Shown piece by piece: positions 29,251 to 51,940 of a stretch of DNA of 64,000 nt (position 1 is the stretch's first letter; every line of letters begins with the position of its first letter). Position numbers and translations under genes: made by a program. The DNA comes from an uncultured delta proteobacterium (GTDB lineage Bacteria; Myxococcota_A; Polyangia; Haliangiales; Haliangiaceae): contig CAWKDB010000002.1 of the NCBI GenBank assembly GCA_963848295.1, positions 704,001 through 768,000 of the forward strand. Reading direction: 5' to 3'. The notes under the pieces are model-generated. The model did no database searches. It was not told the DNA's origin and worked only from the letters and a program-made list of their open reading frames with translations.

Positions 29251-29643
29251 ATGACGAATCGAAAAGCCACATTTGCCAAGCGCCAGCGCGAGACTGACCT
29301 GAAGGACAAGGCTCGCCAAAAGGCGATGCGCCGTGAACAGAAGCGGACCGAAGTGCGCGTGACGAAGGGCCCCGAGATCGCGTGGGACGAGGCCGTGCAC
29401 GAGACCGACTCCGGAGCGCTGCCGCCGACCGATGCTCCGCCGACCGACGACAAGGCCACGCCGTCGCCTGACCCGCACCGCCCGTCGGCGGCGCTGCCCG
29501 CGGGAGGCAAGCCCCTGGCGTCGAGTGATCCGCACCGCCCGTCGGCGGCGGCCGCGAGCAAGCCCGTGGCGTCAGGTGACACGCATCGCCATCCGGTGCA
29601 GCCGGCCGGAGGCAAGCCGGTGCCATCGAGCGATCCGTCGTAG
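29251..29643 (+). CDS. Small basic hypothetical protein with repeat-expanded C-terminus
   Basis: MTNRKATFAKRQRETDLKDK...; upstream AAGGAG; tail made of 57-bp-family repeats. Confidence 0.7.
   Translation: MTNRKATFAKRQRETDLKDKARQKAMRREQKRTEVRVTKGPEIAWDEAVHETDSGALPPTDAPPTDDKATPSPDPHRPSAALPAGGKPLASSDPHRPSAAAASKPVASGDTHRHPVQPAGGKPVPSSDPS
29463..29637 (+). repeat. Degenerate tandem copies of the 57-bp in-frame palindromic element
   Basis: First unit 29463-29519 is exactly 57 bp (gtcgcctgacccgcaccgcccgtcggcggcgctgccc...) and aligns with the 45378-45527 unit. Confidence 0.7.
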
Positions 29644-29655
29644 CGCGCGGCGCTG

Positions 29656-30642
29656 GTGTTGGTCGAGCGCATCGTCGATTCCGGGCTCGTGCCCGAGCCG
29701 GTGATGCGCGCCGCGATCCGCGGGGTGTGCGCCCTGCGGTTGTTCCAAGAGCGCCGCCGCGATCCGCGTGCGCTCGTCGCCGAGCTGCGGCGCAGCGAGC
29801 TCGCGATCGAGACCGCAGCCGCGAACGAGCAGCACTACGAAGTGCCCGCGGCGTTCTTCGAGCGCGTGCTCGGCTCGCACGTCAAGTACTCGGGATGCTA
29901 CTGGCCCGCGGGCGTCGAGACGCTCGATGCCGCCGAGGCCGCGATGCTCGAGCTCTACGCCGAGCGCGCCGGGCTCGCCGACGGCCAGCGCGTGCTCGAT
30001 CTCGGCTGTGGCTGGGGCTCGGTCGCGCTGTGGGCGGCCGCGCGCTATCCCGCGAGCCAGCTCACCGCGGTCTCGAGCTCGAACAGCCAGCGCGAATTCA
30101 TCACCGCGCGCGCCGCGGCGCGGGGGCTCGGTAACCTCACGGTGCTCACCGCCGACATCCGCGGGCTCGAGCTGCCCGCCGCGAGCTTCGATCGCGTGGT
30201 GTCGATCGAGATGTTCGAGCACGTGCGCAACTACGACGCGCTGTTCGCCAAGCTCGCGCGCTGGCTGCGTCCGGATGGCGCGTTGTTCGTCCACGTGTTC
30301 GCGCATCGCCGCTTCGCCTATCCGTTCGAGGACGCCGGCGCGTCCGATTGGATGGCGCGCGAGTTCTTCACCGGCGGCCTGATGCCGAGCGTCGACTTGT
30401 TCCGCGAGTTCCAGCGCGAGCTCGCGATCACCGACGAGTGGCGGATCGACGGCACGCACTACGCGCGGACGGCGGAGGCCTGGTATCGCAACCTGATGGC
30501 GGCGCGCGGCGAGCTCGAGGCCGTGGTCGGCCGCGCCGGATTCCAGCGCTGGCGCGTGTTCTTTCTCGCGTGCGCCGAGCTGTTCGGCTATCGCGGCGGC
30601 AGCGAGTGGCTGGTCGCCCACTATCGGTTCGCGCCACGGTAA
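29656..30642 (+). CDS. SAM-dependent methyltransferase, cyclopropane-fatty-acyl-phospholipid synthase/CNMT-like
   Basis: ANEQHYEVP, KYSGCYW, LDLGCGWGS, DRVVSIEMFEH. Confidence 0.9.
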   Translation: MLVERIVDSGLVPEPVMRAAIRGVCALRLFQERRRDPRALVAELRRSELAIETAAANEQHYEVPAAFFERVLGSHVKYSGCYWPAGVETLDAAEAAMLELYAERAGLADGQRVLDLGCGWGSVALWAAARYPASQLTAVSSSNSQREFITARAAARGLGNLTVLTADIRGLELPAASFDRVVSIEMFEHVRNYDALFAKLARWLRPDGALFVHVFAHRRFAYPFEDAGASDWMAREFFTGGLMPSVDLFREFQRELAITDEWRIDGTHYARTAEAWYRNLMAARGELEAVVGRAGFQRWRVFFLACAELFGYRGGSEWLVAHYRFAPR

Positions 30643-30651
30643 CCTCGCGCG

Positions 30652-31533
30652 ATGCGCTTAGCTTGGATCCTCGCGCTCAGCTTCGCTTCTACGACCGCGC
30701 TCGCCGACGACGGGCACGACGCCTACGACCGCGCGACCGCCGATGGCCTGTTGCAGGCCACCGCCGATGCGATCAGCGGCGTCGCGTCGCCACACATGAA
30801 CGCCCCGCGGTTCGCGTTCGGCGTCCACTTTCCGCACGAGGCGCCGGAGACGGTCGACGACCTCAAAACCGGCGGCGATGCAGTCGACATCGCCTCGGTC
30901 AACCTGCGCGCGAAGTCGGGCAACACCGTCGCCTACGCGGCCGACGGCAGCGCGGCATGGGTCGCCGCGGATCTGTGGGCCTCATCGCCGTGCGGCATGG
31001 ATAGCTGCATGCATGCCAAGCCGGACCCGATGCATGCGACCGCGCTCTACGACAAGGCCGGCGGGTGGCAACCGGTGACGTGGTTGGCGAGCAGGGTCTA
31101 CGGCGGCGCCGAGCAAGCGAAGGCCGTCGCTCACGGCGTCAAGCTCATGGGGCTCGCGCGCAAGGTCGACGGCGCCGAGGAGGTCGTGAAGCAGCTCGAG
31201 GCGACCATCGGCGACGCCAAGGCGCTCGCCGCGACGGTGTCCGCGCGCAAGGACGTCGTGTTGTACGGCAGCGATCTCGGCGAGCGCTACGTCGGCGGCC
31301 CGCGAGTGCGCGCCAAGCTGATCGCGTGGGCGCTCGCGTTCAAGGTGCACGACGGCATCCAGGCCGGCGTGACGTCGAGCAAGACCGTCGCTTGGGTCGC
31401 CGCGAACGTCGACGCGACCTCCGCGAAACATCCGAAGGACAAGCCGGTGCCGTATCGAATGTTGTTCGTCTACGAGAACACCGGCGGCGCGTGGCAGCTA
31501 GTACAAGCGCAGTTCTCGTTCTCGGACATCTAA
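30652..31533 (+). CDS. Secreted hypothetical protein, possibly two NTF2/SnoaL-like domains
   Basis: Signal peptide; repeated AWVAA; C-terminal LFVYE..GGAWQLVQAQFS. Confidence 0.65.
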   Translation: MRLAWILALSFASTTALADDGHDAYDRATADGLLQATADAISGVASPHMNAPRFAFGVHFPHEAPETVDDLKTGGDAVDIASVNLRAKSGNTVAYAADGSAAWVAADLWASSPCGMDSCMHAKPDPMHATALYDKAGGWQPVTWLASRVYGGAEQAKAVAHGVKLMGLARKVDGAEEVVKQLEATIGDAKALAATVSARKDVVLYGSDLGERYVGGPRVRAKLIAWALAFKVHDGIQAGVTSSKTVAWVAANVDATSAKHPKDKPVPYRMLFVYENTGGAWQLVQAQFSFSDI

Positions 31534-31570
31534 CATCGTGTACGGTGCCCCCAACCGGAGGGATGACGTG

Positions 31571-32473
31571 ATGAGAGACCACCAAGATGCGGCGATGCTC
31601 AAGCGGCTACGTGACCAGCTCAAGGTCCATACGCTCGCGACGAAGCTCCAGCAGAGTGCGAAGGCTCAGAAGGAGCTCGCGTTCTATCCCGCGCACGACG
31701 CGCGCAAGGTAACGCCGGAGTACACCCGCGCGCACGAGCACCTTACGATCGCGCTCGATCTGCCGTGCAACGTGTGCGGCGTCCGGCACTCGACACTCGG
31801 CGATGCGAAGCACAATCGCTACGGCGCCAAGGCGATGGAGACCCATCACAGCGTGATCGGTTGGGCGCTCGCGCACGCGGTCGACGCCGATCGGTTCAAC
31901 CACGCGATCCTGCCGAACCTGCGCCATCGTCACGGCGCGCGCAACGAGTACCACTCGCCGTTCACCCAGAAGCAAGTCGCCGACTGGATCGACCACCACG
32001 AGGACAACCTGTCGGTGCTGTGCGATGTCCATCATCGTGGCAAGCACCTCGGCGTTCACGAGTCGCCGATCGCGGGTGCCGTCGATCTGCTGCGCGCGGA
32101 CTTCGCGACGTACGTCGAGTCGCAAGTAAAGCAACTCGCCGACGAGACGAAAGCGGCGAAGGCCGCGGCCAAGCTCGCCGCGAAGGCGCCGGCTGCCGCG
32201 AAGACGCCTGTCGCCGCGAAGGCTCCCGCTGTCGCCGCGAAGGCTCCGGCTGTCGCTGCGAAGGCGCCGACGGTTGCCAAGGCCAAGCCCGCCGCCGCTC
32301 CCGCCGCCGCGGCCGCGAAGATCGGCAAGCCGGTCGCGATCACGAACGGCAAGCACGCCGCCCCGAACGGCAAGCCCGCTGCGCTGAGCGTCAAGCCGAA
32401 CGGCAAGCCCGCCACGCCGAAGGCCAAGCCGGCCGCGAAGCCCGGCAAGGCGCGCCCCGCAGCCCACGCGTAA
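31571..32473 (+). CDS. HNH/zinc-finger-like domain fused to an Ala/Lys/Pro-rich histone H1-like tail
   Basis: CNVC, ETHH, DNLSVLCDVHH..G.H; C-terminal AAKAP repeats; SD GGAGGG. Confidence 0.65.
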   Translation: MRDHQDAAMLKRLRDQLKVHTLATKLQQSAKAQKELAFYPAHDARKVTPEYTRAHEHLTIALDLPCNVCGVRHSTLGDAKHNRYGAKAMETHHSVIGWALAHAVDADRFNHAILPNLRHRHGARNEYHSPFTQKQVADWIDHHEDNLSVLCDVHHRGKHLGVHESPIAGAVDLLRADFATYVESQVKQLADETKAAKAAAKLAAKAPAAAKTPVAAKAPAVAAKAPAVAAKAPTVAKAKPAAAPAAAAAKIGKPVAITNGKHAAPNGKPAALSVKPNGKPATPKAKPAAKPGKARPAAHA

Positions 32474-32479
32474 GCTGAC

Positions 32480-32517
32480 TTGACAACCATGATGTCACAA
32501 TGACATCTTGGTTGTCA
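32480..32517. promoter_or_regulatory. Double MarR-type operator overlapping a sigma70 promoter
   Basis: TGACAACCATGATGTCA-caa-TGACATCTTGGTTGTCA: 17-bp inverted arms (1 mismatch), each TGACA-N7-TGTCA; TTGACA at 32480-32485. Confidence 0.8.
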
Positions 32518-32960
32518 TGAAGCCAACCGCCGAGCAGAACGCGTTCGACGAGCTGATCGAGGAGCTGCGCGCGCTGTGGTTCGCGCTCCGTGCGGCGTCG
32601 GCGCAGATCCACGCCGACATCGAATGCACCGCGATCGAGCGCGGCGCGATGTTCGATCTCTTGCAACTGGGGCCGCAGACCGTGCCCGCGATGGCGCGCG
32701 CCCGCGCGATCAGCCGCCAGGCGATGCAGAAGACGATCGATCGGCTCGCCGCCCGCGGCTGGGTCCACGACGAGCCGAACCCGGCGCACGAGCGATCGGC
32801 GCTGATCGCGTTGTCGCCCGCGGGTGGCAAGATCCTCGCGGACATGCGGGCGCGCGAGGTCGCCGGCATCGCCGGGCTCGAGCTCCCGGCGCCGGCCGAG
32901 CTCCGTCGTGCCGCGCGCGTGCTCGCGACGATCCGCGCGCAGCTCGGAGCGCCGCGATGA
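32517..32960 (+). CDS. MarR family transcriptional regulator
   Basis: GPQTVPAMARARAISRQAMQKTIDRL..RGWV...NPAHERS..I.LS..G winged helix. Confidence 0.9.
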   Translation: MKPTAEQNAFDELIEELRALWFALRAASAQIHADIECTAIERGAMFDLLQLGPQTVPAMARARAISRQAMQKTIDRLAARGWVHDEPNPAHERSALIALSPAGGKILADMRAREVAGIAGLELPAPAELRRAARVLATIRAQLGAPR

Positions 32961-33476
32961 TCGCGTTCCGCGACGAGCTCTACGACGGCCAGTTCTTGCG
33001 CACGCTCGGCCATTGCACGTACGGAGGAGGCGTTCGTGCGCGCTGGCGTCGCCCAGCCGATCGAGATCGCATTCGAGGGCACCACCCTCCCCGGTTACTT
33101 CGCGAGCGGCAGCGGCGGGCCGGACCTGCCCCCGGCCGGCAGCGACGCCGAATGGCGGCGCGGATCGATCGACGGGCGACGTCCGCTCGTGATCTCGGTC
33201 GGCGGCTACGATTCCACCGCGGAAGAGTCCTACTTCTGGAACGCGGCGGCCGCGACCGCGCGCGGGTATCACTGCGTGATGTTCGACGGGCCGGGCCAGG
33301 GCTCGCTGTTGATCGAGCGCGGCGAGCCGTTTCGTCCCGATTGGGAGTTGACGTGTGACAAGGACTACATCCGATTCACCGCGGCCGAGGGTACGGGCGG
33401 CCACTGCGAGAGCGGCGCTCGCTCACTCGTTCACGAGCGCGTATTCGATTGGCTGGACCATCAGTTATCTGCGTGA
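32957..33476 (+). pseudogene. Alpha/beta hydrolase remnant with two internal deletions
   Basis: MIAFRDELYDGQFLRTLG..YGG, frame change near 33027 to IEIAFEGTTLPGYF...GGYDST.EE...FDGPGQG...RPDWE, then direct jump to C-terminal FTAAEG..GHCE; no GxSxG nucleophile. Confidence 0.8.
33114..33176 (-). repeat. Single copy of the 57-bp in-frame palindromic element
   Basis: ggcagcgacgccgaatggcggcgcggatcgatcgacgg has 3 mismatches in 38 nt versus the reverse complement of the 45.4-kb unit; encodes GSDAEWRRGSIDG. Confidence 0.8.
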
Positions 33477-33531
33477 TCGCCGTCGTTGTAGCCGAAGGTC
33501 CGATCGGCTAGGGTCGCTCGAGGGGTGCGCC

Positions 33532-35385
33532 ATGAGACTAGCTGTCGTCGTTGCGATCATTAGTGTCGTTGGTTGCGGTCCGTCTGGCCGCAACGACCAC
33601 GGACCATGCAGTGGCAGCGCCATGCAATGCGTCGGTAACGAGCTGGAGACCTGCCAGGACGGGACATTCCAGGACTCGCAGACGTGCCCGAACGCGTGCA
33701 GCGACATGCTCGGGTGCGTCCTGTGCGTGCCAGGCACCGGCACGTGCAACGGCAATATCTCCACCGCGTGCAACGCCGACGGCTCCGGCTACGACATGGT
33801 CACGTGTGATCCGGTCGAAGGCGAGAGCTGCGACCAGACGATGGGCGTATGCACGGGCGCGTGCTCGCCTGCAGCCCTCGGCCAGAGCTACATCGGTTGC
33901 GATTACTACCCGACGGTCACCGGCAACATCGTCGGCGACAACTTCGACTTCGCGGTCGCGATCTCGAACACCTCGGGCGACGTCGCGATGATCACGATCG
34001 ACGGAGGCGCGCTCACGACGCCGATGATGGTGACCGTCCCCGCGAACAGCTTGCTCGTCCAGAAGCTGCCGTGGCAGCAGGCGCTGAAGATGTGCAACGA
34101 CGCCGACACGCCGGAGACCGGTGGCTGCGATGACATCGCGCCGCCCGAGCCCGGCATCGTCGCGAAGGGCGCGTACCACCTGCGCTCGAACAACCCGGTC
34201 ACCGTCTATCAGTTCAACTCGCTAGAGTACAGCATCGATGGTGGCGTGGACTTCTCGTTCAGCAACGACGCGTCGCTGATGCTCCCGACCAACGTGTGGC
34301 GCAACAATTACTACGCGGCCGCGCTCGGCGGGCTCGCCGGCGTGAACCCGAGCGAGATGGCGATCACCGCGATGCAGGATGGCACGTCGGTCACGATCAA
34401 CTCTCGTGCGACGACCGACGCCGCACCCGGCATCCAGGCTTTCGCGATCGGCACGCCGCAGACGATCACGCTCAATCAGGGTGACGTCGTCGAGCTGACG
34501 AGCAACGGCGACCCGGCCGAGGAAGACGTGACCGACTACGACTTCACGGGCTCGCAGATCATGTCCAGCGCCCCGGTCCAGGTGATCAGCGGCCATTACT
34601 GCGCGGACGTACCCGATAACCCGCCGGTCGCCGCGTGCGATCACATGGAAGAGTCGATGTTCGGCGTCGACGCGCTCAGCTCGACGTACATCGTCAACGC
34701 GCCGGCCGTCACGACCGAACCGTCCGGCAAGGTCGAAGTGATCCGCGTGATCGCGACGCAACCCGGCACGACGCTGACCTACAGCCCGGCCCAGGCCGGC
34801 GCGCCGACCACGATCGCGAACGCCGGTGGCTTCATCGAGATCGACAACAACTCGGCCAGCTTCATGATCACTGCGAACGAGAAGGTGATGGTCGCGCAGT
34901 ACATGGAGGGCCAAGACGCCGACGAGGCCGGCACCGGCGATCCGGCGATGGCCCTCGCGGTCCCGGTCGAGCAGTTCCGCACGAGCTATCTGTTCCATGC
35001 GCCGGTCAGCTACGACAGCAACTACGTCGATGTCACGGCGCCGACCGGCGCGAACGTCATGCTCGACGGCATGCCGGTCACGTTCAACGCGATCGGCACG
35101 ACCGGCTACTCGCTCGGCCGCGTCAACCCGCTCACCGCCGGCCCGAACGGCGATGGCTCGCACAACATCACCGGCGACATGCCGTTCGGCATCACGGTCT
35201 ATGGCTACGGCCAGTACACGAGCTACTGGTACGCTGGCGGTCTCGACCTCAGCACGATCGTCATCGCGCGCGAAGGTCCGACGAAGGCGCCGGTGACGAA
35301 CACGGCGACGGGTCCCGCATCGCCACCGCGGAGCCGACCGTCGCGTACGACACCTGTCCCGACGGCGCCGGCAGCTCGGCACTGA
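33532..35385 (+). CDS. IgGFc-binding-domain lipoprotein (myxobacterial type)
   Basis: Lipobox VVGC, Cys-rich repeats, SYIGCDYYP, VTVYQFN, SNDASLMLP, CDHMEE, GDPAM, YTSYWYAGG. Confidence 0.85.
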   Translation: MRLAVVVAIISVVGCGPSGRNDHGPCSGSAMQCVGNELETCQDGTFQDSQTCPNACSDMLGCVLCVPGTGTCNGNISTACNADGSGYDMVTCDPVEGESCDQTMGVCTGACSPAALGQSYIGCDYYPTVTGNIVGDNFDFAVAISNTSGDVAMITIDGGALTTPMMVTVPANSLLVQKLPWQQALKMCNDADTPETGGCDDIAPPEPGIVAKGAYHLRSNNPVTVYQFNSLEYSIDGGVDFSFSNDASLMLPTNVWRNNYYAAALGGLAGVNPSEMAITAMQDGTSVTINSRATTDAAPGIQAFAIGTPQTITLNQGDVVELTSNGDPAEEDVTDYDFTGSQIMSSAPVQVISGHYCADVPDNPPVAACDHMEESMFGVDALSSTYIVNAPAVTTEPSGKVEVIRVIATQPGTTLTYSPAQAGAPTTIANAGGFIEIDNNSASFMITANEKVMVAQYMEGQDADEAGTGDPAMALAVPVEQFRTSYLFHAPVSYDSNYVDVTAPTGANVMLDGMPVTFNAIGTTGYSLGRVNPLTAGPNGDGSHNITGDMPFGITVYGYGQYTSYWYAGGLDLSTIVIAREGPTKAPVTNTATGPASPPRSRPSRTTPVPTAPAARH

Positions 35386-35426
35386 CCAGCGCGACGCTGC
35401 TGCCAACCCCTGCGTGGGACGTCAAC
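35303..35426 (+). repeat. Diverged copy of an internal segment (36001-36127) of the downstream IgGFc gene
   Basis: Manual alignment: about 18 substitutions in 124 nt plus a 3-nt indel. Confidence 0.85.
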
Positions 35427-35431
35427 TGACG

Positions 35432-37912: not shown

Positions 37913-37921
37913 GCGAGATCG

Positions 37922-42927: not shown

Positions 42928-44640
42928 CTAGTAGATCACGCCGAGCGACAGATACCCCCCGTAGTACTTGTCGGTCGCGCCGCCGACGTCTTTCATCGTC
43001 GGGTCGCCGGTCCCACCGTTCGACAACGCGCCGGTCCCCTTGAACGCCATCCCGACCTGCGTGTACTGGCCGGCGAGCCGGACCGCGAACCGCTTCATGA
43101 ACGTGATGTCCAAGCCGAGGTAGCCGTCGATCGCGGTCACAGTCGTCTGACCGTATTGGTCGGGGTCCTGGATCGGGCCGGCGGAGCGCGCGAGCCACGT
43201 CTTGACGCCGACGACGAGCGCGATCGGGCGCGCGAACGGGATGCGAGCGTCGAGCGCCGGGTAGAAGTACTTGTAGTTGACGTCCGGGAGGTTCAGCGTC
43301 TCGCCGGTCATCAGCTTCGACCGGTCCGAAGCGAACTCGCGGCTGCCGTAGCCGAGGCCGAGCTGGATGGATGGGCTCGTCACCTTCGGACCGAGCACGT
43401 AGCGGTACACGAGCGCGATCGCGTAGTCGTGCTGCGTGACCGGCAGCAGCGAGGTCGAGCCGGCGGACGGTCGGAGCTTCAAGCCGACGGTGTCGTCGAA
43501 CTCCCCGGCGATGCCGATGCCCGCGGCCGCGCCCTTGCGGTTGCTGAACGCGAGCGGGAACACCTCGCCGGTCACCATCGCGCCGGCGTTCGGAGAGTTC
43601 TTGTACGGCTCGGGCATGTCGACCGCGGTCGGGCTCGCGTTGTAGGTCAAGTGACGAGCGAGCATCGACAGGCCGACGTCGAGCCGCGCGGCATCGCGGT
43701 TCGCGGGGTGCGCGACCGCCGCGCCATCGCCGACATCGACGTGTGCGGAGACATCGCCGCCGCCGGAGTCGTCGTCGCCCTCCGCGACCTTCTTGTGGTG
43801 CGCCTTGGCGTCGTCGTCGCTCTTCTTCTTCGAGTGGTCGTCGTCGCCCGAATCGTCGTCGCCGCCCTTCTTCTTGTCGTCTCCGTCGCCCTTGTCGGCC
43901 TTCGCGTCGTCGTCGTCGGTCAGCCGCTTCTTTTTCTTCTTGTCGGCCTTCGCGTCGCTGTCGTCATCGCCGCTGTCATCATCCGCGGACTTCTTGCCCT
44001 TCTTCTTTTTCGAGGCGTCGTCGTCGCCGTTGTCGTCGTCCGCCGACTTCCTGCCCTTCTTCTTGTCCGCCTTCGCGACCTTCTTCGACCCGTCGTCGTC
44101 GGCATTGTCGTCGTCCGCCGACTTCTTGCCCTTCTTCTTGTCCGCCTTCGCGTCCTTGTCGTCCTTCTTCGCCGAGTCGTCGTCGGCGTCGGATGACGAG
44201 ACCCCGAGCTTCTCGACGATCTTGTCGTGGATCGCGACCTTGAGCTTCGCGTTCCTCGCGCTCGCGAACTCGATCTTGAAACCCTTGAGCTTCTTGCCGT
44301 GCGCGAACAGCTTGATGTGGAGGACGTGGTCCTCGCCTTTCGGCGACACGACGCGGCCCTGGATCACGGCATCGGCCTCGAGATCGGACGACAGCTTCTT
44401 TAGATCCCGGAGCGAGAGCTCGCCATCCGCGCCGATCTTGTCGACCGCGCGATGGACTTCCTTCGCGCTGATGAACGTCAGCTCGGAACCGAGCGCGTGG
44501 ACGATGAGCTCGTGAATGGCACCGTTGTCATCTCCGTCGAGCTCGAGGAATGCCACTCGCGGTGGCTTGGCCTGCGCGGCGCTGGGGATGATCACCAACG
44601 CGCACAGAACTGCGATCGCGATCGCTACAGTTCGGCCCAT
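42928..44640 (-). CDS. Secreted/outer-membrane hypothetical protein with Asp/Lys-rich repeat linker and C-terminal beta-barrel-like domain
   Basis: Signal peptide, AKADKKKG(K/R)KSADDD repeats, amphipathic strands ending YLSLGVIY. Confidence 0.7.
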   Translation of the reverse strand: MGRTVAIAIAVLCALVIIPSAAQAKPPRVAFLELDGDDNGAIHELIVHALGSELTFISAKEVHRAVDKIGADGELSLRDLKKLSSDLEADAVIQGRVVSPKGEDHVLHIKLFAHGKKLKGFKIEFASARNAKLKVAIHDKIVEKLGVSSSDADDDSAKKDDKDAKADKKKGKKSADDDNADDDGSKKVAKADKKKGRKSADDDNGDDDASKKKKGKKSADDDSGDDDSDAKADKKKKKRLTDDDDAKADKGDGDDKKKGGDDDSGDDDHSKKKSDDDAKAHHKKVAEGDDDSGGGDVSAHVDVGDGAAVAHPANRDAARLDVGLSMLARHLTYNASPTAVDMPEPYKNSPNAGAMVTGEVFPLAFSNRKGAAAGIGIAGEFDDTVGLKLRPSAGSTSLLPVTQHDYAIALVYRYVLGPKVTSPSIQLGLGYGSREFASDRSKLMTGETLNLPDVNYKYFYPALDARIPFARPIALVVGVKTWLARSAGPIQDPDQYGQTTVTAIDGYLGLDITFMKRFAVRLAGQYTQVGMAFKGTGALSNGGTGDPTMKDVGGATDKYYGGYLSLGVIY

Positions 44641-44670
44641 CCCCTGTAAGTATACACGACGATCACAAAG

Positions 44671-45990
44671 CTACAGGTCGAACAGGTAGAAGTAGGCTCG
44701 CAGGTTTGCATTGGCCAGCGGCTTCTTGATTCGCGGCCGGCCGAGCACGCGCGCGAATGCGGCCTCGAGCAGCGGATTGCCCACGAGAAATCCTGCGCGC
44801 CAGCCGACAAATCGCCGGCACGTGACGGCCAACGCCTCGTAGATCGGCTCGACCTCCGTGTCGTCGAGGCGCTCGCCGTACGGCGGGTTCGACAGGATGA
44901 GGCCGGTGGTCGGCGCCGCGCGTCCGCGCTCCGCCGCGATCTGGTCGATCATCTTCGGCGTGAGCTGCGCGACGTCACCGCGTTGCCACGTCACCGCATC
45001 GGCGACGCCGGCCGAGCGCGAGTTGTCACGTGCCGCGGCGAGCGCATCGAGATCGAGATCGCAGCCAACGACGAGCGGTGCAGCATCGGGATAGAGCGGC
45101 GCGGGTTTGGCTGCGCTCGCGTAACCGAGCGCGTGCGGCGGTGGCCATGGCCGAGGCGGCGCTTTCGCAGCGAGCACCGCCTCGATCGCGATCGTGCCGG
45201 CACCGCACATCGGATCGACGAGCGCGTCCTTGCGCGGGTCGAAGCGCGCGAGCATGAGCAACACCGCCGCGAGATGCTCGCGCAACGGCGCCGGGCCGGC
45301 CTCGCCGCGCCAGCCGCGTTGCGACAGCGAGCCGCCGCCGAGGTCAAGCGAGATCACGAGCTCGTTGTGGGCGTCGCCGCCGCTGCCGCCCGAGGGCGTG
45401 CCTCGGCCGTCGATCGAACCGCGCCGCCCTTCGGCGCCGCTGCCGCCCGAGGGCGTGCCTCGGCCGTCGATCGAACCGCGCCGCCCTTCGGCGCCGCTGC
45501 CGCCCGAGGGCGTGCCTCGGCCGTCGAACCGGGCGACCCAGCGCGACGCCGGGCGATGCGGATCGACCTTGAGCCGAATGCCCTTGCGCGCGGCCGCGTC
45601 GATCATCGCGTTCTTGACCGTGCCGACGACCTGGCGCTCGCCGGCCTCGAACTGCTCGACGTGGCGCGCCTCGACCGAGATGCCATCGCCATCGCGCCAC
45701 AGCGCGCGCGTGTCGCCGGCAATATCGGCGTACAGCTCGTCGTACAGCGGCTCGAGCCGGCGCGCGCGCGTGCGATAGACGTCCCACACGACTCGGGTCG
45801 GCGTGCGCAGGTACGTGACCGCGGCCCATGCGAGCTCGCGATCGAATGGATAGACGAGCTGACCGAGCCCTTCTTTGCGCGGCTCGGGGGGGCGGCGATG
45901 AAGCGCGCGCTGCGCGACGCGGACGAACTCGGCAGCCATCACGACGTTAGTCTGCGTCGAGCCGATGATGCGAAGCTCGTCGCAGATCAC
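44671..45990 (-). CDS. THUMP-domain RNA methyltransferase (RlmL/UPF0020-like)
   Basis: GSLSQRGWR, APLREHLAA, DPMCGAGTIAIE, NPPYGERL; GTG start overlaps upstream stop. Confidence 0.88.
   Translation of the reverse strand: MICDELRIIGSTQTNVVMAAEFVRVAQRALHRRPPEPRKEGLGQLVYPFDRELAWAAVTYLRTPTRVVWDVYRTRARRLEPLYDELYADIAGDTRALWRDGDGISVEARHVEQFEAGERQVVGTVKNAMIDAAARKGIRLKVDPHRPASRWVARFDGRGTPSGGSGAEGRRGSIDGRGTPSGGSGAEGRRGSIDGRGTPSGGSGGDAHNELVISLDLGGGSLSQRGWRGEAGPAPLREHLAAVLLMLARFDPRKDALVDPMCGAGTIAIEAVLAAKAPPRPWPPPHALGYASAAKPAPLYPDAAPLVVGCDLDLDALAAARDNSRSAGVADAVTWQRGDVAQLTPKMIDQIAAERGRAAPTTGLILSNPPYGERLDDTEVEPIYEALAVTCRRFVGWRAGFLVGNPLLEAAFARVLGRPRIKKPLANANLRAYFYLFDL
45378..45527 (+). repeat. Perfect 57-bp tandem repeat (2.6 copies) in frame inside the methyltransferase
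   Basis: Unit cgccgctgccgcccgagggcgtgcctcggccgtcgatcgaaccgcgccgcccttcgg; peptide DGRGTPSGGSGAEGRRGSI. Confidence 0.95.
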
Positions 45991-46916
45991 GGCGGGCCGT
46001 TGAGCGCCGCGAGCAGGCCCGCGTCGGCAAAGAACCTCTTGTGCAAGTAGTAGCCGCGCTGGTCGGTGCCGGCCGGGCCCTTCGGCCGAACGTGCAAGTA
46101 ACGGCGAGTCCAGCGCGCCACCGCATCGTCCCAGTCGAGCAGGTACCAGGCGACGAGCGTCGCGTCGTCGCCGGTCGTCGTGCGGGCGAGCCACAACGTG
46201 CGTTGCAACTTCGCGAGCGCGGCTCCTTCGCCGACCATCGCGATCGCGGGATCCTCGACGATCCGCCAGTGACCGCTCGGCTCGCGCGCGACCGCGACCG
46301 TCTTGAGCTCGACATCGCCGCGCCAATCGGGCTCGCCGCGGCCGCGCTCGCGCACGCCGAGCAACCGCGCCGCGCGACTGCCCCACGCGCCCTTGTCGCT
46401 GCCACGCGGGCCGAGTCGAACGCCGAGCGCGCGATCGGCCGCGGCGAGCAGCTCGTCGAGTGTCTCCGGCTCGTCGGTCGGCGGCCGTGGTGATCGCGCG
46501 GCGGGCACGGGCCGCGGCCACGCTTCGGCCGGCGGATGGGCGCCGCGAGCCGGGCCTTGGACGACGAGATGACCGCCGAGCACGATCGGCCGCGGCTGCA
46601 CGGCCGCGGCGATTTCAGCACCGCCGGCTTCGAGCGCGGCGCCCTTGTGCCACAGCGCGAGCCGGAGCTCGGGTGATCGGCCGCGCGGCACGCCGAGTGC
46701 GTGCCCGACCGCGGCGAGCTCGCCAAGGGTCATCGCGTTGAGCAGGCCGCATAGATCGCCGCCCCAGCGAGCGCCGACGAGAGCCGTCGCTTCGTCGACA
46801 TCGAGTCGCCGCCGGGTCGCCGGCTCGAACGAATCGAACCGCAGCACGCGCACCGCGGCGAGCCGACGGACCGCCGCGGCCGGCAACCGCGCGACGAAGC
46901 GATCCACCGCGTTCAT
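45987..46916 (-). CDS. MutH/Sau3AI-like PD-(D/E)xK endonuclease with N-terminal extension
   Basis: DKGAWG...LLG...EPD..DVELKTV, LHVRPKG...RGYYLHKRF resemble MutH blocks. Confidence 0.72.
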   Translation of the reverse strand: MNAVDRFVARLPAAAVRRLAAVRVLRFDSFEPATRRRLDVDEATALVGARWGGDLCGLLNAMTLGELAAVGHALGVPRGRSPELRLALWHKGAALEAGGAEIAAAVQPRPIVLGGHLVVQGPARGAHPPAEAWPRPVPAARSPRPPTDEPETLDELLAAADRALGVRLGPRGSDKGAWGSRAARLLGVRERGRGEPDWRGDVELKTVAVAREPSGHWRIVEDPAIAMVGEGAALAKLQRTLWLARTTTGDDATLVAWYLLDWDDAVARWTRRYLHVRPKGPAGTDQRGYYLHKRFFADAGLLAALNGPP

Positions 46917-46938
46917 TCCGCCGACCCTAGACGATCCG

Positions 46939-47042
46939 GGGGACGCTGTCGCTTTTGTCAACTTGCTCGCGACCGCGTCCATGCGAGTGCTTGGTGATCG
47001 TTCATGATTCGTGGGGACGCTGTCGCTTTTGTCAACTTGCTC
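46939..47042 (+). repeat. Left doublet of the 28-30-bp repeat GGGGACGCTGTCGCTTTTGTCAACTTGCTC
   Basis: Identical copies at 46939-46968 and 47013-47042 (period 74). Confidence 0.95.
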
Positions 47043-47056
47043 CGGTAGCGTCAGGT

Positions 47057-47542
47057 ATGCGCGGGGTGCTCGTTGCGATGGCGCTGTCGGCATGCGCGCC
47101 GACGGTCGATGGCCCGGCCGAGCACCAACGCGCGCTCGATCGCGACGATGCGGCAGCCCTCTCGAGCCAGCTCGCGGCATTGCCGGGCGCCGTCCGGGCC
47201 GAGGTCACGTTGCATCGAGCGGTGCGCGATCCGCTCGCGAACGAGCCGCCGTCGCCGGCGGGCGCCGCCGCGGTCGTCATCGTCGACGACCAAGCCGATC
47301 GCGCCGCGGTACGCGATTCGGCATTGCGGCTGGTCCACGCTGCGGTGCCCGAGGTCCCCGCGCCGTCGATCGCGATCGAGCTCGGCGCGACTCGGCCAGA
47401 GCTCGCATCGATCGGGCCGTTCACCGTCGCCGCCTCCTCGAAGCGCGGGCTCGTCGCGGCCCTCGCGATCGCGCTCGCCGTGATCGCTGCGCTCGCCGGT
47501 TTCATCGCGTTCCGCGAACGCCCTCGCTTTGGCGCAAGTTGA
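47057..47542 (+). CDS. Orphan SctJ/YscJ/FliF-like ring-building-motif lipoprotein
   Basis: Lipobox LSAC; LSSQLAALPGAVRAEVTL...AAAVVIV...LVHAAVP; C-terminal TM with basic tail. Confidence 0.6.
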   Translation: MRGVLVAMALSACAPTVDGPAEHQRALDRDDAAALSSQLAALPGAVRAEVTLHRAVRDPLANEPPSPAGAAAVVIVDDQADRAAVRDSALRLVHAAVPEVPAPSIAIELGATRPELASIGPFTVAASSKRGLVAALAIALAVIAALAGFIAFRERPRFGAS

Positions 47543-47636
47543 CAAAAGCGACAGCGTCACCATTGCTTCTCGTCGGATATCGCGGCCTTGCGCTCATCGC
47601 GAAAAAGCGTAAGTTGACAAAAGCGACAGCGTCACC
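47534..47636 (-). repeat. Right, inverted doublet of the same repeat
   Basis: G(C/T)AAGTTGACAAAAGCGACAGCGTCACC at 47534-47561 and 47609-47636 (period 75). Confidence 0.95.
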
Positions 47637-48696
47637 TTCGCGGGAAGACGGCCCAGAAGTCGAGTTCTAGGACGATGCGCGGCTCTTTCGCTCCGGTGTG
47701 CAGCGGCTGGATCGACGCTAGCTCGGCGGCTGGAACGTTCCGAACGGCCGACAGCCGCAGGCGCAGCGCGCCGACGTCGGCGCGGGTCGGTAGCTCGGCC
47801 TTCGATACGACTTCGCTGAATGCGCGCAGGGTGTCGCCCGCGAAGGTCGGCGCGACGTGAGCGCCACTGTTCCATGCCGCGAGCCGGAGCAGCGCGCCGA
47901 GACCGTTCTGCGCGAGCGCACTCGCGACGCTGATGACGTGGCCGCCGTAGACGATGCGCTTGCCGTTGCGCGAGCTCGCCGCAGCGATCGCGTCGAAATG
48001 GACTTGCGCGGTGTTGTGGTACAGCCGCGTCGCCTGGACGTGATCGGCTTCTTCGATCGTCATCGCGTCGGGATGATCGAGCCGGTCGCCCTCGTCGAAG
48101 TCGTCCCACCATCCACCCGGCGGAAACGCCCACGCGAGGTCGGGCAACCGCTGCAGGTTCATCGCCTCCGGCACCGGCAGTCGATCGACGGTCACGACCG
48201 GCGGGAGCGTCGGGGTCTGGTCGATGCCGACCGCGGCGGTCTTGTCACGCTTCGGCACCATGACCCAGCGCACGAAGGACAGGACCTCCTGACCCTTCTG
48301 GTTGGTCCCGCGCGTGCGCACGTAGACCACACCGGCTTCGCCGCTCGAGACTTCGCGCAGCCCGATAATTTCGCTCTCGGCGACGAGCGTGTCGCCGGGA
48401 TAGACCGGCCGCAGGAACCGCACGTCGGCGTAGCCGAGGTTCGCGGTCGCGTGGTGCGAGATGTCCGGCACCGAGCGGCCGAACACGATGTGGAACACGA
48501 ACAGATCCGGCATCACCTCGCGCACGAATCCGAGCGAGCGCGCGAGCTCGGTCGACGCCGCGAGCGGATGGCGATCACCGGTGAGCGAGAAGTAGGTCGA
48601 CAGATCGCCGCCGTGCAGCGTGCGCGGCACCGCGTGGACGAGGTACTGCCCGATCGAGAAGTCCTCGAAGTACCGACCGCTGAAAACCTTCGTCAT
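47632..48696 (-). CDS. Double-hotdog MaoC dehydratase, mesaconyl-CoA hydratase-like
   Basis: GRYFEDF...PRT, FHIVFGRSVPDIS..ATANLGYA, LYHNTAQVHFD, VYGGHVIS. Confidence 0.85.
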   Translation of the reverse strand: MTKVFSGRYFEDFSIGQYLVHAVPRTLHGGDLSTYFSLTGDRHPLAASTELARSLGFVREVMPDLFVFHIVFGRSVPDISHHATANLGYADVRFLRPVYPGDTLVAESEIIGLREVSSGEAGVVYVRTRGTNQKGQEVLSFVRWVMVPKRDKTAAVGIDQTPTLPPVVTVDRLPVPEAMNLQRLPDLAWAFPPGGWWDDFDEGDRLDHPDAMTIEEADHVQATRLYHNTAQVHFDAIAAASSRNGKRIVYGGHVISVASALAQNGLGALLRLAAWNSGAHVAPTFAGDTLRAFSEVVSKAELPTRADVGALRLRLSAVRNVPAAELASIQPLHTGAKEPRIVLELDFWAVFPRR

Positions 48697-48762
48697 GGCG
48701 AACGGTCGGCGACACTACCCGGAGAAGATCCCCGAGACAAGTGCGCTCGGCGATGCGCCTCG

Positions 48763-50064
48763 CTACTCGGTCAGCAGGTAGGAGTAGTTGAACGACTGCG
48801 GTCCGCCGTCCCACGGCGGGAACGACGCGCCCTTGACCGCGTTCTGCACGCAGTTGCCTTCGGGCTTGCCCGCGAACGCGCCGGTGACCGCCGCGCGCGC
48901 GACCTTCCCCGACGGCGAGATCGTGAGCTTCACGCTGACCGTGCCTTGCGTGCCCTTGTAGCAAGCCTGCGCCTTCGCGGCGACGCCCGCCATCCCGCCC
49001 TTGAAGTCGTCGCCCGACAGCATCTTGTTGGCCGGCTTGGTCGCCTCGACCTGCTTCGGCCGGTTCGCGGCCTGCGTCAACAGCTCTTCGATCTCGTCCT
49101 TCGGCTTCTTCGCATCGGCATCGGCGGGTGGCGTCGCCGGAGCCGCGACCGCTGCGCCGCCAGTCGGCGCTGCCGAGGTCTTGTCGCCCTTCGGTGCGAC
49201 CTTGCCGACCGTGGCCTTCGCGTGCGCGCGACCGGGCGACGCGTGCGCGGTGCGCGGTGGTGGCGTGATAGTCGCGACCTCGGTCTCCGCCACCGGCGTG
49301 GCGTCCGCGCCTGCAGCGGCGGAACCCGAGCCTGCCGCTGCGCCGCTGGCCGGTTGCTCGGGCGCGATCGGTTCGACGCGCGGAGCCGCGGCACTGCCGG
49401 CGGCGGCGGGAGGAGCCATGGGCGTTGGCGCGGCCTCGTTCACGATGGTCGTGGTCGAGGTCGCGACGTCCTGCGTTGCGGGCTGGCGCGTCGCGAAGAA
49501 GATCACCGCACCCGCGGCGACCGCGAGCCCGCTGCCGACCACGGCGATCATGGCGCGGTTGCCGCGGCGCGCCTTGACGACCGGACGCGTACCTTGGGCG
49601 CTCGGCTTCGGCGCCGCGACCGGCGCGGGCGCAATGACGCCGCGCTCTTTCGCGAGCACCTCGCGCTTCGACGGCAGTTGATCGAGCGCCGGCAACGACA
49701 CCATCTGCGCGGGCTCGGGAAGCGCGACCGCTTTCCAACCGGCCGACGTCGATGCCAGGATATCTTCGTCGGTCTTGTTCGCCGGCTGGGCCGTGATCCG
49801 GCGGGATGACATCCGCACCTTCGTCGACTGGGCGAGGCTGCGCAGATCGTGCAACCCGGAGTCGTCATCGCGCAGTGGCGCCGCGGACGCGATCGCGCCG
49901 CTCGACTCTTTAACCGTGCCCTTACCCGACGATGCGGTGGTCTCCATGCTGGTCTCCAGACGCGAAAGCGTCCTTTGCGGAAGGGCATCGAAATACCCTG
50001 ACGGCGCCTCACCGTCCAGGGTTTTCAGCGCTCGGCGCAGCAGGTCGTCTAGGTCGTCTGACAT
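48763..50064 (-). CDS. Membrane protein with Pro/Ala linker and TonB/AgmX-like C-terminal domain; probable anti-sigma partner
   Basis: Follows the ECF sigma gene; single TM; ACY..GTVSVKLTISPSGKV....NCV..AVK..SFP. Confidence 0.7.
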   Translation of the reverse strand: MSDDLDDLLRRALKTLDGEAPSGYFDALPQRTLSRLETSMETTASSGKGTVKESSGAIASAAPLRDDDSGLHDLRSLAQSTKVRMSSRRITAQPANKTDEDILASTSAGWKAVALPEPAQMVSLPALDQLPSKREVLAKERGVIAPAPVAAPKPSAQGTRPVVKARRGNRAMIAVVGSGLAVAAGAVIFFATRQPATQDVATSTTTIVNEAAPTPMAPPAAAGSAAAPRVEPIAPEQPASGAAAGSGSAAAGADATPVAETEVATITPPPRTAHASPGRAHAKATVGKVAPKGDKTSAAPTGGAAVAAPATPPADADAKKPKDEIEELLTQAANRPKQVEATKPANKMLSGDDFKGGMAGVAAKAQACYKGTQGTVSVKLTISPSGKVARAAVTGAFAGKPEGNCVQNAVKGASFPPWDGGPQSFNYSYLLTE

Positions 50065-50072
50065 GGCAGAAT

Positions 50073-50663
50073 CTATTTGCGGGCCGTCGCCGCCGGAGGG
50101 GCGACCCCGAGCCGCTCGCGCAGCAAGCGGCGGGCCTCGTTGACCCGCCAGGCCACGGTTCCCTCGGGGATCTCGAGGATTTCGGCGATCTGCTTGTGCG
50201 GCATGTCCTCGATGGTGGCTAGCACGATCGTGACCCGTAGCGACGGGGATAGTTCGGCGATCGCGTCGAGAACACGGCGGATCTCGGCGGTTTGCTGCAC
50301 GGACTTGGCTGGATCGGGCCCGGCTTGGCCGAGCGCCTCGGGCCGCCCCCCGACGTGAGCGGCCTCGGCGCCGCTCCTGAGGTTGAGCCCGCTGCTCCGC
50401 TTGTCGGCGCGCAGCGCGTTGAGGGCGGTGTTGATCGCGATGCGGTACAGCCACGTCGAGAATTCGGCCCGGCCATCGAACCCGGCGAGCCCGCGAAAGG
50501 CGCGGACGAACGCCTCTTGGGTGGCGTCGTCGGCATCGCTGTGGTTGCCGAGAATATGGAGGGCGGCTGCGTACACGCGGCGTTGATACTTCTGGACGAG
50601 ACGCCCGAACGCGGCGCGGTCACCTTCGCGGGCCCGGTCGAGGTCGGGGTCCTCGTCAGCCAT
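50073..50663 (-). CDS. ECF RNA polymerase sigma-70 factor
   Basis: GDRAAFGRLV, DADDATQEAF, FSTWLYRIAIN, IAEILEIPEGTV. Confidence 0.93.
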   Translation of the reverse strand: MADEDPDLDRAREGDRAAFGRLVQKYQRRVYAAALHILGNHSDADDATQEAFVRAFRGLAGFDGRAEFSTWLYRIAINTALNALRADKRSSGLNLRSGAEAAHVGGRPEALGQAGPDPAKSVQQTAEIRRVLDAIAELSPSLRVTIVLATIEDMPHKQIAEILEIPEGTVAWRVNEARRLLRERLGVAPPAATARK

Positions 50664-50720
50664 GACGAGGCACTATATGGGACGTACCCATTCGACAACA
50701 GCTAGCCATCGAGGTTTGGG

Positions 50721-51119
50721 TCATCGTCGGCGATCGGCCTCGAACAGCTTCGGCACGAGCGCCGCGACCAGCTCGGCGATCCGAGCGAGCGAGCGCGCCG
50801 CCTCCGCCTGTTCGACGAGGCGACCGCGGATTCGGGCTGCGCCGGCGACCGCGGTATCCGAGGCGCGCTGCCGTGGGGCGAGCTCGAGCACGTTGAGCGG
50901 ATCGGGGCCGCCGAGCACGCCGCGCAGGTGCGTGATCCGGCCGCGCGCCTCGCGCAGTGCGTCGGCGACATCGTCGGCGTAGGCGCCGATCAGCGCGGGT
51001 CGATCGACGAACGCATCGAGGTCGACGAGCGCGAGGTCGCGCAGGCGCAACGACATCGCTTCATCAGGATCGGCGGCGAGTGGCTGCCCGACCGCCGCGA
51101 CGACGTTGGTCAGGATCAC
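50721..51119 (-). CDS. Hypothetical helical protein coupled to the pspA-like gene
   Basis: GTGA overlap with PspA stop; coding-like bias. Confidence 0.65.
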   Translation of the reverse strand: MILTNVVAAVGQPLAADPDEAMSLRLRDLALVDLDAFVDRPALIGAYADDVADALREARGRITHLRGVLGGPDPLNVLELAPRQRASDTAVAGAARIRGRLVEQAEAARSLARIAELVAALVPKLFEADRRR

Positions 51120-51940
51120 GGCTTGCCCTTGTTGATCGACTCCGCACCGCCTTCGGCGGCGCTACGCGTCGGGCGTTCGCCCGACTTGTCGATCGACTCC
51201 GCACCGCCTTCGGCGGGTTTCGCAGCCTCGAGTGCCTTCTGCTTCGCCGCCTTGTCCTCGGTCATCTTCGTCTTGAGCTTCGCGAGTGCGTCGTCGGGGC
51301 CACCCGGCGCCGCGAGCAGTCCGGGGTTGTTCCGGGTCGCGGCGAGCAGCTTGGCGTCGAGCTCGGCCTCGCCCGCGGTTTCACCGCGCATCGCGGCGTC
51401 GACCTCGGTCTCGATCGCCTCGGCGTCGATGCGCTCTTCCGCGCGCGCGAACTTGTCCCACACCGACGAGTCGTTGCCGAACGCGTCGCCCCCGGCCGAG
51501 CGCGCCGCCGCGATCTGGGTCGCGAGCGTGCCCTTGCGCATCTTCAGGATCTGCAGCTTGGTCTCGAACTCTTTGCGGCTCTTGTTGAGCTGGATCGCGT
51601 AGCTCGCCGCCTCGTGCTTGTCGCGCTCGATCTTCGCCGCCTCGACCTCGGCGGCCTTCTTCTCGCGCAGCGCGATCTTCGCGGCCTCGTCGTCGCCGGC
51701 CTTGACCGCGGTCATCGCGCGCTTCTCCCACTCGGCGGCCTTCGCTTTGAACTTCGCGACGTCGGCGTCGAGCTGCTTCGCGGTCGTCTTGTAGCTGACG
51801 AGCTCGGCGAGCGCCTTCTTGCGCCCCTCCTCGAGCTCGAGGATCGCCATGTCGACCTCTTTCGCCGGGTCGATCGCCTTGTCGATCGCGGCGTTGGCCT
51901 TGCTCGACACACCGGTCTTGATCCGGGAGAAGAACCCCAT
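51116..51940 (-). CDS. pspA: PspA/IM30 (bacterial ESCRT-III-like) family protein
   Basis: MGFFSRI...ANAAIDKAIDP, WEKRA..A..AGDDEAAK.AL, DDALAKLK. Confidence 0.88.
   Translation of the reverse strand: MGFFSRIKTGVSSKANAAIDKAIDPAKEVDMAILELEEGRKKALAELVSYKTTAKQLDADVAKFKAKAAEWEKRAMTAVKAGDDEAAKIALREKKAAEVEAAKIERDKHEAASYAIQLNKSRKEFETKLQILKMRKGTLATQIAAARSAGGDAFGNDSSVWDKFARAEERIDAEAIETEVDAAMRGETAGEAELDAKLLAATRNNPGLLAAPGGPDDALAKLKTKMTEDKAAKQKALEAAKPAEGGAESIDKSGERPTRSAAEGGAESINKGKP
51129..51216 (+). repeat. 57-bp-period repeat in the PspA C-terminus (same element family)
   Basis: ttgt(t/c)gatcgactccgcaccgccttcggcgg at 51129 and 51186; peptide AEGGAESI twice. Confidence 0.85.

Follow-up and report, generated by a model that had tools for sequence, protein, structure and literature searches.

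Two families of 57-nt hairpin repeats, mostly in frame within genes of a myxobacterium, are probable non-autonomous mobile elements

The window analysed here, a stretch of 64,000 nucleotides from the genome of a free-living soil myxobacterium, raises the question of how related hairpin-rich segments came to lie within four unrelated genes. The initial annotation of this DNA, made from its letters alone, read them as a non-autonomous mobile repeat that adds in-frame peptide to proteins. The four sites exist where they were placed (Table 1), and further copies in the genome together with empty orthologues support that reading; the repeats are very probably non-autonomous mobile DNA elements.

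Table 1. Repeat sites in the window and the genes that carry them
Feature	Position	Strand	Remarks
Family A array	45374..45527	+	Antisense to host gene; adds 50 aa
Parts of the array	45374-45376; 45378-45412; 45413-45469; 45470-45526		TCG core; truncated unit (21-nt deletion); two full 57-nt units
RlmL-like THUMP and methyltransferase host, 439 aa	44671..45990	-	Insert at about aa 156-205
Family A single copy	33111..33172	-	Unit at about 33113-33169, plus core; antisense, in frame
Alpha/beta hydrolase pseudogene host	32957..33476	+	Fragments align to aa 2-27, 111-195 and 347-380 (homologue of 396 aa)
Family B element	51128..51216	+	CTTG core 51128-51131; full unit 51132-51188; partial unit 51189-51216; antisense to pspA
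PspA/IM30 host	51116..51940	-	Element in variable C-terminal tail
Three degenerate family A units	29464..29630	+	Periods 57 and 51; sense orientation
Small protein host, 130 aa	29251..29643	+	N-terminal ~60 aa conserved, tail variable

The array in the RlmL-like gene is a tandem repeat of period 57 (2.7 copies, 98% matches) and falls between two predicted beta-strands of its host; the AlphaFold model is poor over much of the THUMP domain (pLDDT <50 at residues 64-125) and thus supports a local beta-turn reading only. The core of the single copy in the hydrolase gene agrees with this array at 35 of 38 nt, as first reported, and the copy is an exact 19-aa insertion relative to both hydrolase homologues compared, its host being a pseudogene with large deletions. 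The insert in the PspA tail is absent from all 14 orthologues among the matches listed.

Profile searches of the genome, which belongs to the Kofleriaceae and is 85% complete, returned 200 family A and 36 family B matches at E<=0.1, compared with 0 and 0 in the reversed-genome control, which bears out the earlier expectation of further copies above background. These correspond to 173 loci of family A and 21 of family B, each family being a 57-nt, two-hairpin repeat. The single element of the initial annotation holds for three of the four sites, which belong to family A, but not for the PspA tail, whose unit reached only E=1.1 with the family A HMM and differs in its first loop (3 nt), its second hairpin and its core (CTTG|TC); judged on these sequence features it is a separate but related family, so that there are two families and not one. 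With a covariance model the four sites scored 79.5, 69, 60.8 and 28.9 bits (the first three were part of the training set), and the next match in the window scored 18.8. Units of family A are 57 nt long and those of family B arrays 54 or 57; arrays run head-to-tail, and of the 16 tandem rows of period 57 in the genome 13 are family A or B elements as judged from their consensus units. Single copies are all distinct, the nearest paralogue differing at 2-28 of 57 positions (median ~8); with no identical pair among them, nothing points to a current burst.

The distribution is patchy and limited to the genus: 40 of 90 congeners carry family A and 50 gave no match. Viral contigs held no exact pattern match, phages and plasmids gave only 2 and 5 weak matches at chance level, and an Rfam scan of positions 29000-52000 gave one chance match only. 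No earlier description of either family was found in CC-licensed PMC and bioRxiv texts, although the supplements of papers on REPs and PATEs may list related repeats.

Orthologues that lack the segments were found among homologous proteins and between genomes. A short loop without insert is present in 111 of 118 RlmL-like homologues, and among 41 lineage-specific sites compared with a sister genome the length difference is exactly 57 nt at 28 and a multiple of three at 37, the other four lying outside or at the ends of open reading frames; at coding sites the reading frame is kept. Outgroups are empty at the RlmL, hydrolase and PspA sites, the three for which this was shown. About a third of the G000 sites with an orthologous region (12 of 37 scored) are common to the sister genome. 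The RlmL-like gene provides an allelic series with 0, 2, 2.6 or 3 units, its proteins measuring 389, 427 and 446 aa in 19-aa steps and the 439-aa protein being the allele with the partial unit; in the sister genome this site holds three full units. The closest allele (96%) is without the array, which is common to a more distant allele. Some of the empty alleles probably reflect loss, and for at least one of them this is the best reading of the sequences. In a distant RlmL homologue the same loop holds a 19-aa insert that matches the antisense peptide profile of the element (iE 2.7e-5). The extra RlmL insert of one relative (L026) resembled a remnant of hairpin 2 and was rejected, having no score with the model.

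Across the genome the hosts include uvrD, recG, guaA, purK, tgt and the RlmL-like methyltransferase gene, and 123 of the 173 family A loci lie inside called genes. Two observations refine the picture first drawn: copies are depleted in genes relative to target sites (71% versus 91%), and the polarity of change is not always gain. The claim that the segments are stop-free in both orientations is correct at the four sites but weak as a general property, since 88% of the frames in 108 copies are open versus 78% in shuffles, slightly above chance; non-genic copies have a stop in 2 to 7 of 28 for any given frame. Six frame and orientation classes are occupied, tracking the codon phase of the target, and a codon-phase bias as a mark of selection was rejected because it follows the phase of TCGA in genes. 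Within genes sense copies outnumber antisense copies by 82:41, compared with 15 and 17 between co-directional genes, where there is no orientation bias; confinement of the bias to genes argues for selection on the peptide and not for an RNA route. Replication-strand bias is absent (72:70) as judged by local GC skew, which is weak in this genome.

The unit has near-terminal palindromes and is too short for a transposase. Pairing in its hairpins is maintained through change: 22 aligned copies contain 27 cells with changes on both sides, a number reached in 0 of 500 shuffles, and in a set of 108 copies Watson-Crick pairing holds for 0.72 at pair 14-29 (0.46 expected) and for 0.88 at pair 39-53 (0.60 expected). 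The three second hairpins named originally are present in the sequence. Terminal inverted repeats are lacking according to the column profile and the pair counts, the palindromic TCGA core being the sole self-complementary part at the ends. Insertion cores match the 3' end of the family concerned (TCG|A for A, CTTG|TC for B), with one copy of the core in an empty site and one on each flank of a filled site. The family A core reads (R)TCG, and empty sites have T in 23, C in 17, G in 25 and A in 18 of 25; in family B the right end is C21 T20 T21 G20 and the left flank C14 T14 T13 G16, each of 21. At positions 1-5 the left core varies independently of the right, direct-repeat length is 3.60 versus 3.50+-0.10 in shuffles, and no signal of target duplication was found by this test, which a duplication of 2-3 near-invariant letters would escape. 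The crossover is bounded only to positions -1 to +5, left and right assignments being mixed within that range.

If the repeats are mobile and non-autonomous, an HUH or other single-strand route is moderately likely. The fuller reading preferred here is close to an even call: two non-autonomous elements of 57 nt, inserted as exact units and for the most part in frame, would move as single-stranded circles that an HUH-type transposase supplied in trans cuts and rejoins. Such an enzyme would bind the hairpins, cut at the 3' foot of hairpin 2 and join the unit 3' of a look-alike tetranucleotide, by analogy with the enzymes of IS200/IS605 and IS91, and arrays could later expand or contract via slippage or recombination. 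With a length of 3n, copies would persist where the protein has loops, linkers or tails, and those at other places in genes would be purged. Low-depth assembled contigs showed neither a circular form of the unit nor polymorphism between strains, and they yielded no usable joint.

A RAYT or HUH gene flanked by the same motif, as envisaged in the initial annotation, was searched for and not found; the element flanks no transposase gene, and among the 90 congeners none of the types tested co-occurs specifically with it. PF01797 has 9 matches in the genome, none linked to the element, and NF047646 has 13, none over the cut-off. A local Y1 profile identified 21 Y1-type ORFs or fragments, the nearest 1.7 kb from a copy; 39 Y1 loci in the genome and its relatives held no convincing element copy (best 20.8 bits), and no left half had a right half in the 6 kb after it. 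TnpB (PF07282) had 0 matches in the 85%-complete genome, Rep_1 (PF01446) matched in 1 of 91 genomes and not in the studied one, and scans for rolling-circle Rep motifs with strict patterns found 0 of 6985 called proteins. Co-occurrence was scored in 40 family A carriers and 50 non-carriers, which as kin are not independent. Y2 genes were present in 15/40 carriers versus 22/50 non-carriers (IS91-type Y2 in 4/16 element-rich versus 22/50 element-free genomes), and L249-type Y1 genes in 24/40 versus 25/50, while the L257 type was negatively associated (24/40 versus 45/50). The HUH Y1 gene of L002 type is present in all 40 carriers, a fit that says little because it is also in 48/50 non-carriers.

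By analogy, the anatomy of the unit is that of PATEs and IS91-type elements, and its behaviour in genes is that of the Rickettsia palindromic elements (RPEs). RPEs belong to an AT-rich intracellular genome. They are described as short palindromic non-autonomous repeats that lie in frame in many unrelated genes and add a conserved peptide (Ogata 2000, 2002, via PMC10969869), with RPE-1 at about 150 bp (PMC10969869). Likened by description, families A and B are also dispersed palindromic repeats that occupy unrelated genes in frame and are missing from orthologues, and here too no enzyme was found; they differ in being 57 nt long and GC-rich, in a free-living soil host, with two hairpins, tandem arrays, a defined target core and about 190 loci.

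PATEs of Haloquadratum are described as having near-terminal palindromes and a 4-5-nt target, with neither TIR nor duplication, and a 52-bp terminal-only PATE appears mobile (PMC3119063). Families A and B likewise have no TIR, no duplication, two near-terminal palindromes, a short conserved target on the 5' side, a 5' leader longer than the 3' one and a size near that of the 52-bp PATE, but no parent IS605 element or TnpB was found, the hairpins are unlike each other and copies are mostly intragenic. They also lack lagging-strand bias, whereas IS608 and ISDra2 favour the lagging-strand template (PMC5027513).

IS91, one of a family of rolling-circle elements (see also PMC5714925), is described as targeting CTTG (also CTCG), with its own end cut at CTCG and no duplication, and functional mini-IS91 ends measure 89 and 82 bp (PMC13181058). 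CTTG and CTCG resemble the CTTG of family B and the (R)TCG of family A, and absence of duplication and subterminal palindromes are shared; however, the functional ends exceed the 57-nt unit, Y2 transposases do not co-occur with it, and of the two Y2 matches (PF04986) in the genome the local remnant is without element-like ends matching oriIS or terIS.

GTAG and CGTC REPs, and REPINs with RAYT, are described as GC-rich high-copy hairpins, some in ORFs where they add 20-30 aa, and in tandem clusters (PMC3733652, PMC6006769, PMC3116915). These features recur in families A and B, and hairpin 2, when read on the other strand, is similar to the GI palindrome of P. fluorescens as quoted in PMC3116915. 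When the column profile is compared with the published descriptions, however, there is no GTAG or GTGG tag at the hairpin foot, nor a CGTC with A-T-closed stem and CCA tail; copies are head-to-tail and not inverted dimers, mostly intragenic, and no REPtron or flanked Y1 gene was found. Terminal inverted repeats with target-site duplication, as in DDE-type MITEs, are also lacking. Cyanobacterial SDRs reportedly insert in genes without duplication and measure about 20 bp, compared with 57 nt and two hairpins here, a likeness by description only. They are portrayed as very small, possibly mobile, tandemly repeated units (PMC2884548).

An unlikely alternative is conservative site-specific recombination through the short shared core, in which a non-HUH recombinase, of tyrosine type or IS110-like, would act on a folded strand or a small circle. 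On either side of the cut the target looks like the circle junction in both families, precise loss and head-to-tail arrays also fit, and target position -1 covaries with element position 57 (18/10/17/53, p=3.6e-4, n=137), although this signal does not exceed the null maximum in a wider mutual-information scan. The genome has 15 tyrosine-recombinase matches, but by coordinate comparison none lies <5 kb from a copy; the IS110 transposase (PF02371) has 0 matches in the 85%-complete genome, and no inverted binding arms flank the core. Improbable, too, is a process with no dedicated enzyme, in which the unit is cut out, amplified and put back at TCG or TTG microhomologies through hairpin-driven template switching and microhomology repair, and selection keeps 3n products. 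This would agree with the absence of a linked transposase, with homogenised arrays that shift in 19-aa steps, with the array-free state of the closest RlmL allele and with clustering of loci (13 pairs within 1 kb versus 5.0 expected). It accounts poorly for exact 57-nt ends at 28 unrelated sites, for unpaired leader and loop letters conserved at 84-98%, as in a protein-binding site, for two families each faithful to its own core, and for a patchy, genus-confined distribution.

Copying via RNA by a host reverse transcriptase, as in a bacterial SINE-like element, is very unlikely: the four reverse-transcriptase matches in the genome and the sense excess in genes would suit it, but no such match lies within 5 kb of a copy (coordinate comparison), the sense excess vanishes between co-directional genes, duplication, tail and Rfam match are lacking, and the opposite strand folds equally well or better. 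That the segments are host-maintained functional sites (mRNA hairpins or DNA-binding sites) or ancestral protein repeats, with empty sites as losses, is most improbable, since the allele read as a loss and the sites shared with the sister genome are set against the short loops of most RlmL homologues, frame classes that follow target codon phase, variation without a peak at third codon positions and the many congeners without a match.

A further reading, quite doubtful at present, is a minimal self-guided transposon whose hairpin-2 foot pairs with its own 3' end and picks a look-alike target, so that changes of the foot would retarget it; length would be held at 3n and entry and exit scar-free, making a reversible generator of protein loops served by a not-yet-recognised enzyme of this myxobacterial genus. 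The foot bases are TCG in A and TTG in B, and in either family a C-T mismatch lies three bases from the cut; guide-pairing at positions 34/1 and 58/1 was negative.

With about 190 loci in one genome, two target cores, exact filled and empty counterparts in sister species and a housekeeping gene with an allelic series, the insertion chemistry and its enzyme become testable, which bears on how coding palindromes such as RPEs spread. The copies amount to a natural scan of which loops of enzymes like UvrD, RecG, TGT and PurK tolerate 19 extra residues, and they call for caution in the annotation and phylogeny of Kofleriaceae. If it is true that the element's own hairpin foot sets its target, these repeats would be among the smallest known retargetable, frame-preserving insertion units.

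The initial annotation placed one 57-nt element at four sites in the window. Units are present at all four, three of which belong to a single family (A), whereas the unit in the pspA tail (E=1.1 against the family A HMM) belongs to a related second family (B). A BLASTN search of the host genome (G000; 7.78 Mb, 68% GC, 85% complete; the window is C2:704001-768000) with the array beginning at 45374 returned 72 loci at E≤1e-5 and none with the reversed query. An iterated HMM gave 200 family A matches at E≤0.1, merging into 173 loci (162 single copies and 11 arrays), and a family B model seeded from the pspA unit gave 36 matches at 21 loci; reversed controls gave 0 and 0, in keeping with the predicted genome-wide copies above background. 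No two single copies are identical, local clustering of loci is modest, and 13 of 16 period-57 tandem-repeat rows are A or B as judged by consensus.

Locations of the units and of other repeats and remnants
Feature	Location	Remarks
Three degenerate units in small-protein gene	window 29464-29630	family A
Unit in hydrolase pseudogene	window 33111-33172	family A
Array in RlmL-like gene	window 45374-45527	family A
Full and partial unit in pspA	window 51128-51216	family B
Alpha/beta hydrolase pseudogene	window 32957-33476	two large internal deletions
Other coding tandem repeats	window 43811-44157 and 32177-32465	periods 42, 75, 18-33; unrelated to the element
Family A copy back to back with six-unit family B array	G000 C10:73701-74141	31 nt apart
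66-nt coding repeat	G000 C10:532738-542420	eight clusters, ~1.3 kb spacing; probably a long repetitive surface protein
~200-nt repeat	G000 C10:3040006-3040235 and 11 other places	delimited by an inverted repeat; no relation to the 57-nt element
IS91-like Y2 transposase remnants (L281)	G000 C10:52000-55500	two, opposite-facing; one truncates the other

Covariance-model matches to family A occur in 40 of 90 congeners (at least five with 30 or more matches, scoring being capped at 59) and family B in 11, ten of which also have A; absence from a tally means not found in incomplete assemblies. The tallies take in two unpublished genomes (G010 and G066) as rows, and none of the conclusions depends solely on these two. 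Outside the genus, a sample of 140 genomes of the phylum yielded only three single marginal covariance-model matches. Named homologues are mostly from Kofleriaceae, and the nearest titled relative, the sister genome G077 (uncultured Kofleriaceae bacterium), has orthologous DNA ~80-93% identical to that of the host.

Family A is made up of a TCG core, a leader (AT-NN-AACC), hairpin 1 (an 8-bp stem closed by a 4-nt loop), hairpin 2 (a stem of ~10 bp carrying a C-T mismatch close to its foot, and a GCARG-type loop) and an (R)TCG end, and conservation across 108 single ungapped copies falls to background beyond positions 1-61. Both stems covary: among 22 aligned copies, whose relatedness may inflate the counts, two-sided changes affect 10 of 18 pairs (2/500 shuffles as high) and 27 cells are changed on both sides (0/500), with slid controls lower, and Watson-Crick pairing at variable stem pairs exceeds expectation in the 108 copies. 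Energy does not reveal which strand is active: the folding z is about -2.4, and folding is slightly better on the opposite strand. Hairpin 1 recurs in family B, where its loop has 3 nt; hairpin 2 differs and the leader is longer, yet the unit again measures 57 nt. CTTG|TC stands both at the ends and at the left flanks of family B, whose arrays in relatives have a period of 54 or 57.

Comparison with G077, covering 1.84 Mb of its ~7.5 Mb, found both flanks in the other genome for 37 loci of G000 and 30 of G077 (one locus entering the count twice), with the element scored absent from the partner at 25 and 17 respectively. Removal of C10:867508, which is really shared (net 0), left 41 lineage-specific sites. 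The length difference is a multiple of three at 37 of them and exactly 57 nt at 28; the remaining four differences (38, 52, 56 and 61 nt) lie outside ORFs or at ORF ends. Shared copies score lower than lineage-specific 57-nt ones (median -log10 E 8.1 versus 11.0, p=0.03), as would be expected if the latter were younger insertions. The sister genome's syntenic contig has no counterpart of the hydrolase pseudogene stretch or the preceding MarR gene.

In pairs whose anchors are offset by exactly 57 nt, empty family A sites read T (23/25), C (17/25), G (25/25) and A (18/25). They agree with the left flank through -2 and with the right flank starting at +6; the positions between are mixed. At position 5, 87% of filled left ends carry T, while empty sites have no preferred base, and A occupies position 4 in 94% of left versus 60% of right ends; the cut is therefore most simply placed after TCG. 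The left and right cores are independent (direct-repeat length 3.60 versus 3.50±0.10 in shuffles), which is not the pattern predicted by a 4-5-bp target duplication. The pair formed by target position -1 and element position 57, one of the 12 inspected, is an exception in that the two covary (p=3.6e-4, n=137). A wider scan reached a higher null maximum than this signal, which is therefore a lead only.

Given mobility, the anatomy of the element tips the balance modestly towards an HUH-type route. PATEs are described with no TIR, no duplication, palindromes near the termini and a short 5' target (PMC3119063); IS608, with a single-stranded circle, insertion 3' of a tetranucleotide and a resealed donor (PMC5027513); and IS91, with a CTTG target and an own end cut at CTCG (PMC13181058). 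The HUH reading rests on anatomy because no Y1, Y2, RT or tyrosine-recombinase gene in G000 is flanked by the element (the initial annotation had suggested a RAYT/HUH gene so flanked), no autonomous version was seen, and co-occurrence across the 90 congeners singles out no candidate gene type. The candidates comprised 21 HUH Y1 ORFs or fragments of three kinds, an IS91-like Y2 remnant, four RT matches and 15 tyrosine-recombinase matches. Against an HUH-type route stand the missing partner transposase and the missing lagging-strand bias, copies showing no replication-strand preference (72:70). One Y1 type (L257) is rarer with the element (24/40 carriers versus 45/50 non-carriers), possibly a phylogenetic effect. 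Most multi-copy Y1 genes have the ~200-nt repeat (loci L003-L006, L008 and L009) on their upstream side, and it also occurs alone.

With genes called by our own dicodon caller, 123 of 173 family A loci are wholly genic versus 91% of TCGA sites, so genes are depleted of copies although most copies are genic. At 78 of the 173 loci the flanks are coding on both sides in one open frame (element omitted from the score). Frames of the element itself are open in 88% versus 78% by chance, and frame use tracks the codon phase of the target. Genic copies favour the sense orientation (82 versus 41 antisense, p=3e-4), whereas those between co-directional genes are balanced (15:17). The commonest encoded peptide approximates DRTAPPFGGAAGRGQAPAV; the two peptides initially proposed correspond to the antisense frame and a rarer sense frame. 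A scan of 24 host proteins placed seven insertion points within Pfam stretches (UvrD_C, RecG DEAD, CheW, GAF, AAA lid, TGT and PurK ATP-grasp) and the others outside matched stretches; GMP synthase hosts a family B copy.

At the RlmL-like locus, orthologues lack the insert as anticipated: the loop is short in 111 of 118 homologues, and the array is missing from 19/19 aligned orthologues. Alleles of 389, 427, 439 and 446 aa carry 0, 2, 2.6 and 3 units, the partial unit in G000 reflecting, by comparison with G077, a deletion of 21 nt. Units of these two genomes look orthologous, since they differ at 3-5 of 57 positions compared with at least 7 to every other single copy. The empty 389-aa allele, compared as protein only, is nevertheless closer to G000 (96%) than is the G077 allele (93-94%), making precise loss, or recombinational replacement by an empty allele, likely. 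The insertion site aligns with the LH-KET stretch of RlmL (PDB 3v8v), between predicted strands 151-154 and 210-215 (pLDDT ~30). A 19-aa insert in the same loop of a distant homologue is separate from the array and matches the antisense peptide profile of the element. Two further homologues (P0050 and L026) have 18- and 12-aa inserts in or near this THUMP loop region, which resemble degenerate copies by eye and do not score as element copies.

No published description of either family was found in the openly licensed PMC and bioRxiv literature, and for each of the REP, MITE, PATE and IS91 kinds, membership fails on one or more of the features tested. In behaviour, both families are like RPEs (PMC10969869) and intragenic REPs (PMC3733652, PMC6006769). 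Families A and B are a genuine pair of mobile hairpin elements, restricted to one genus, that preserve the reading frame.
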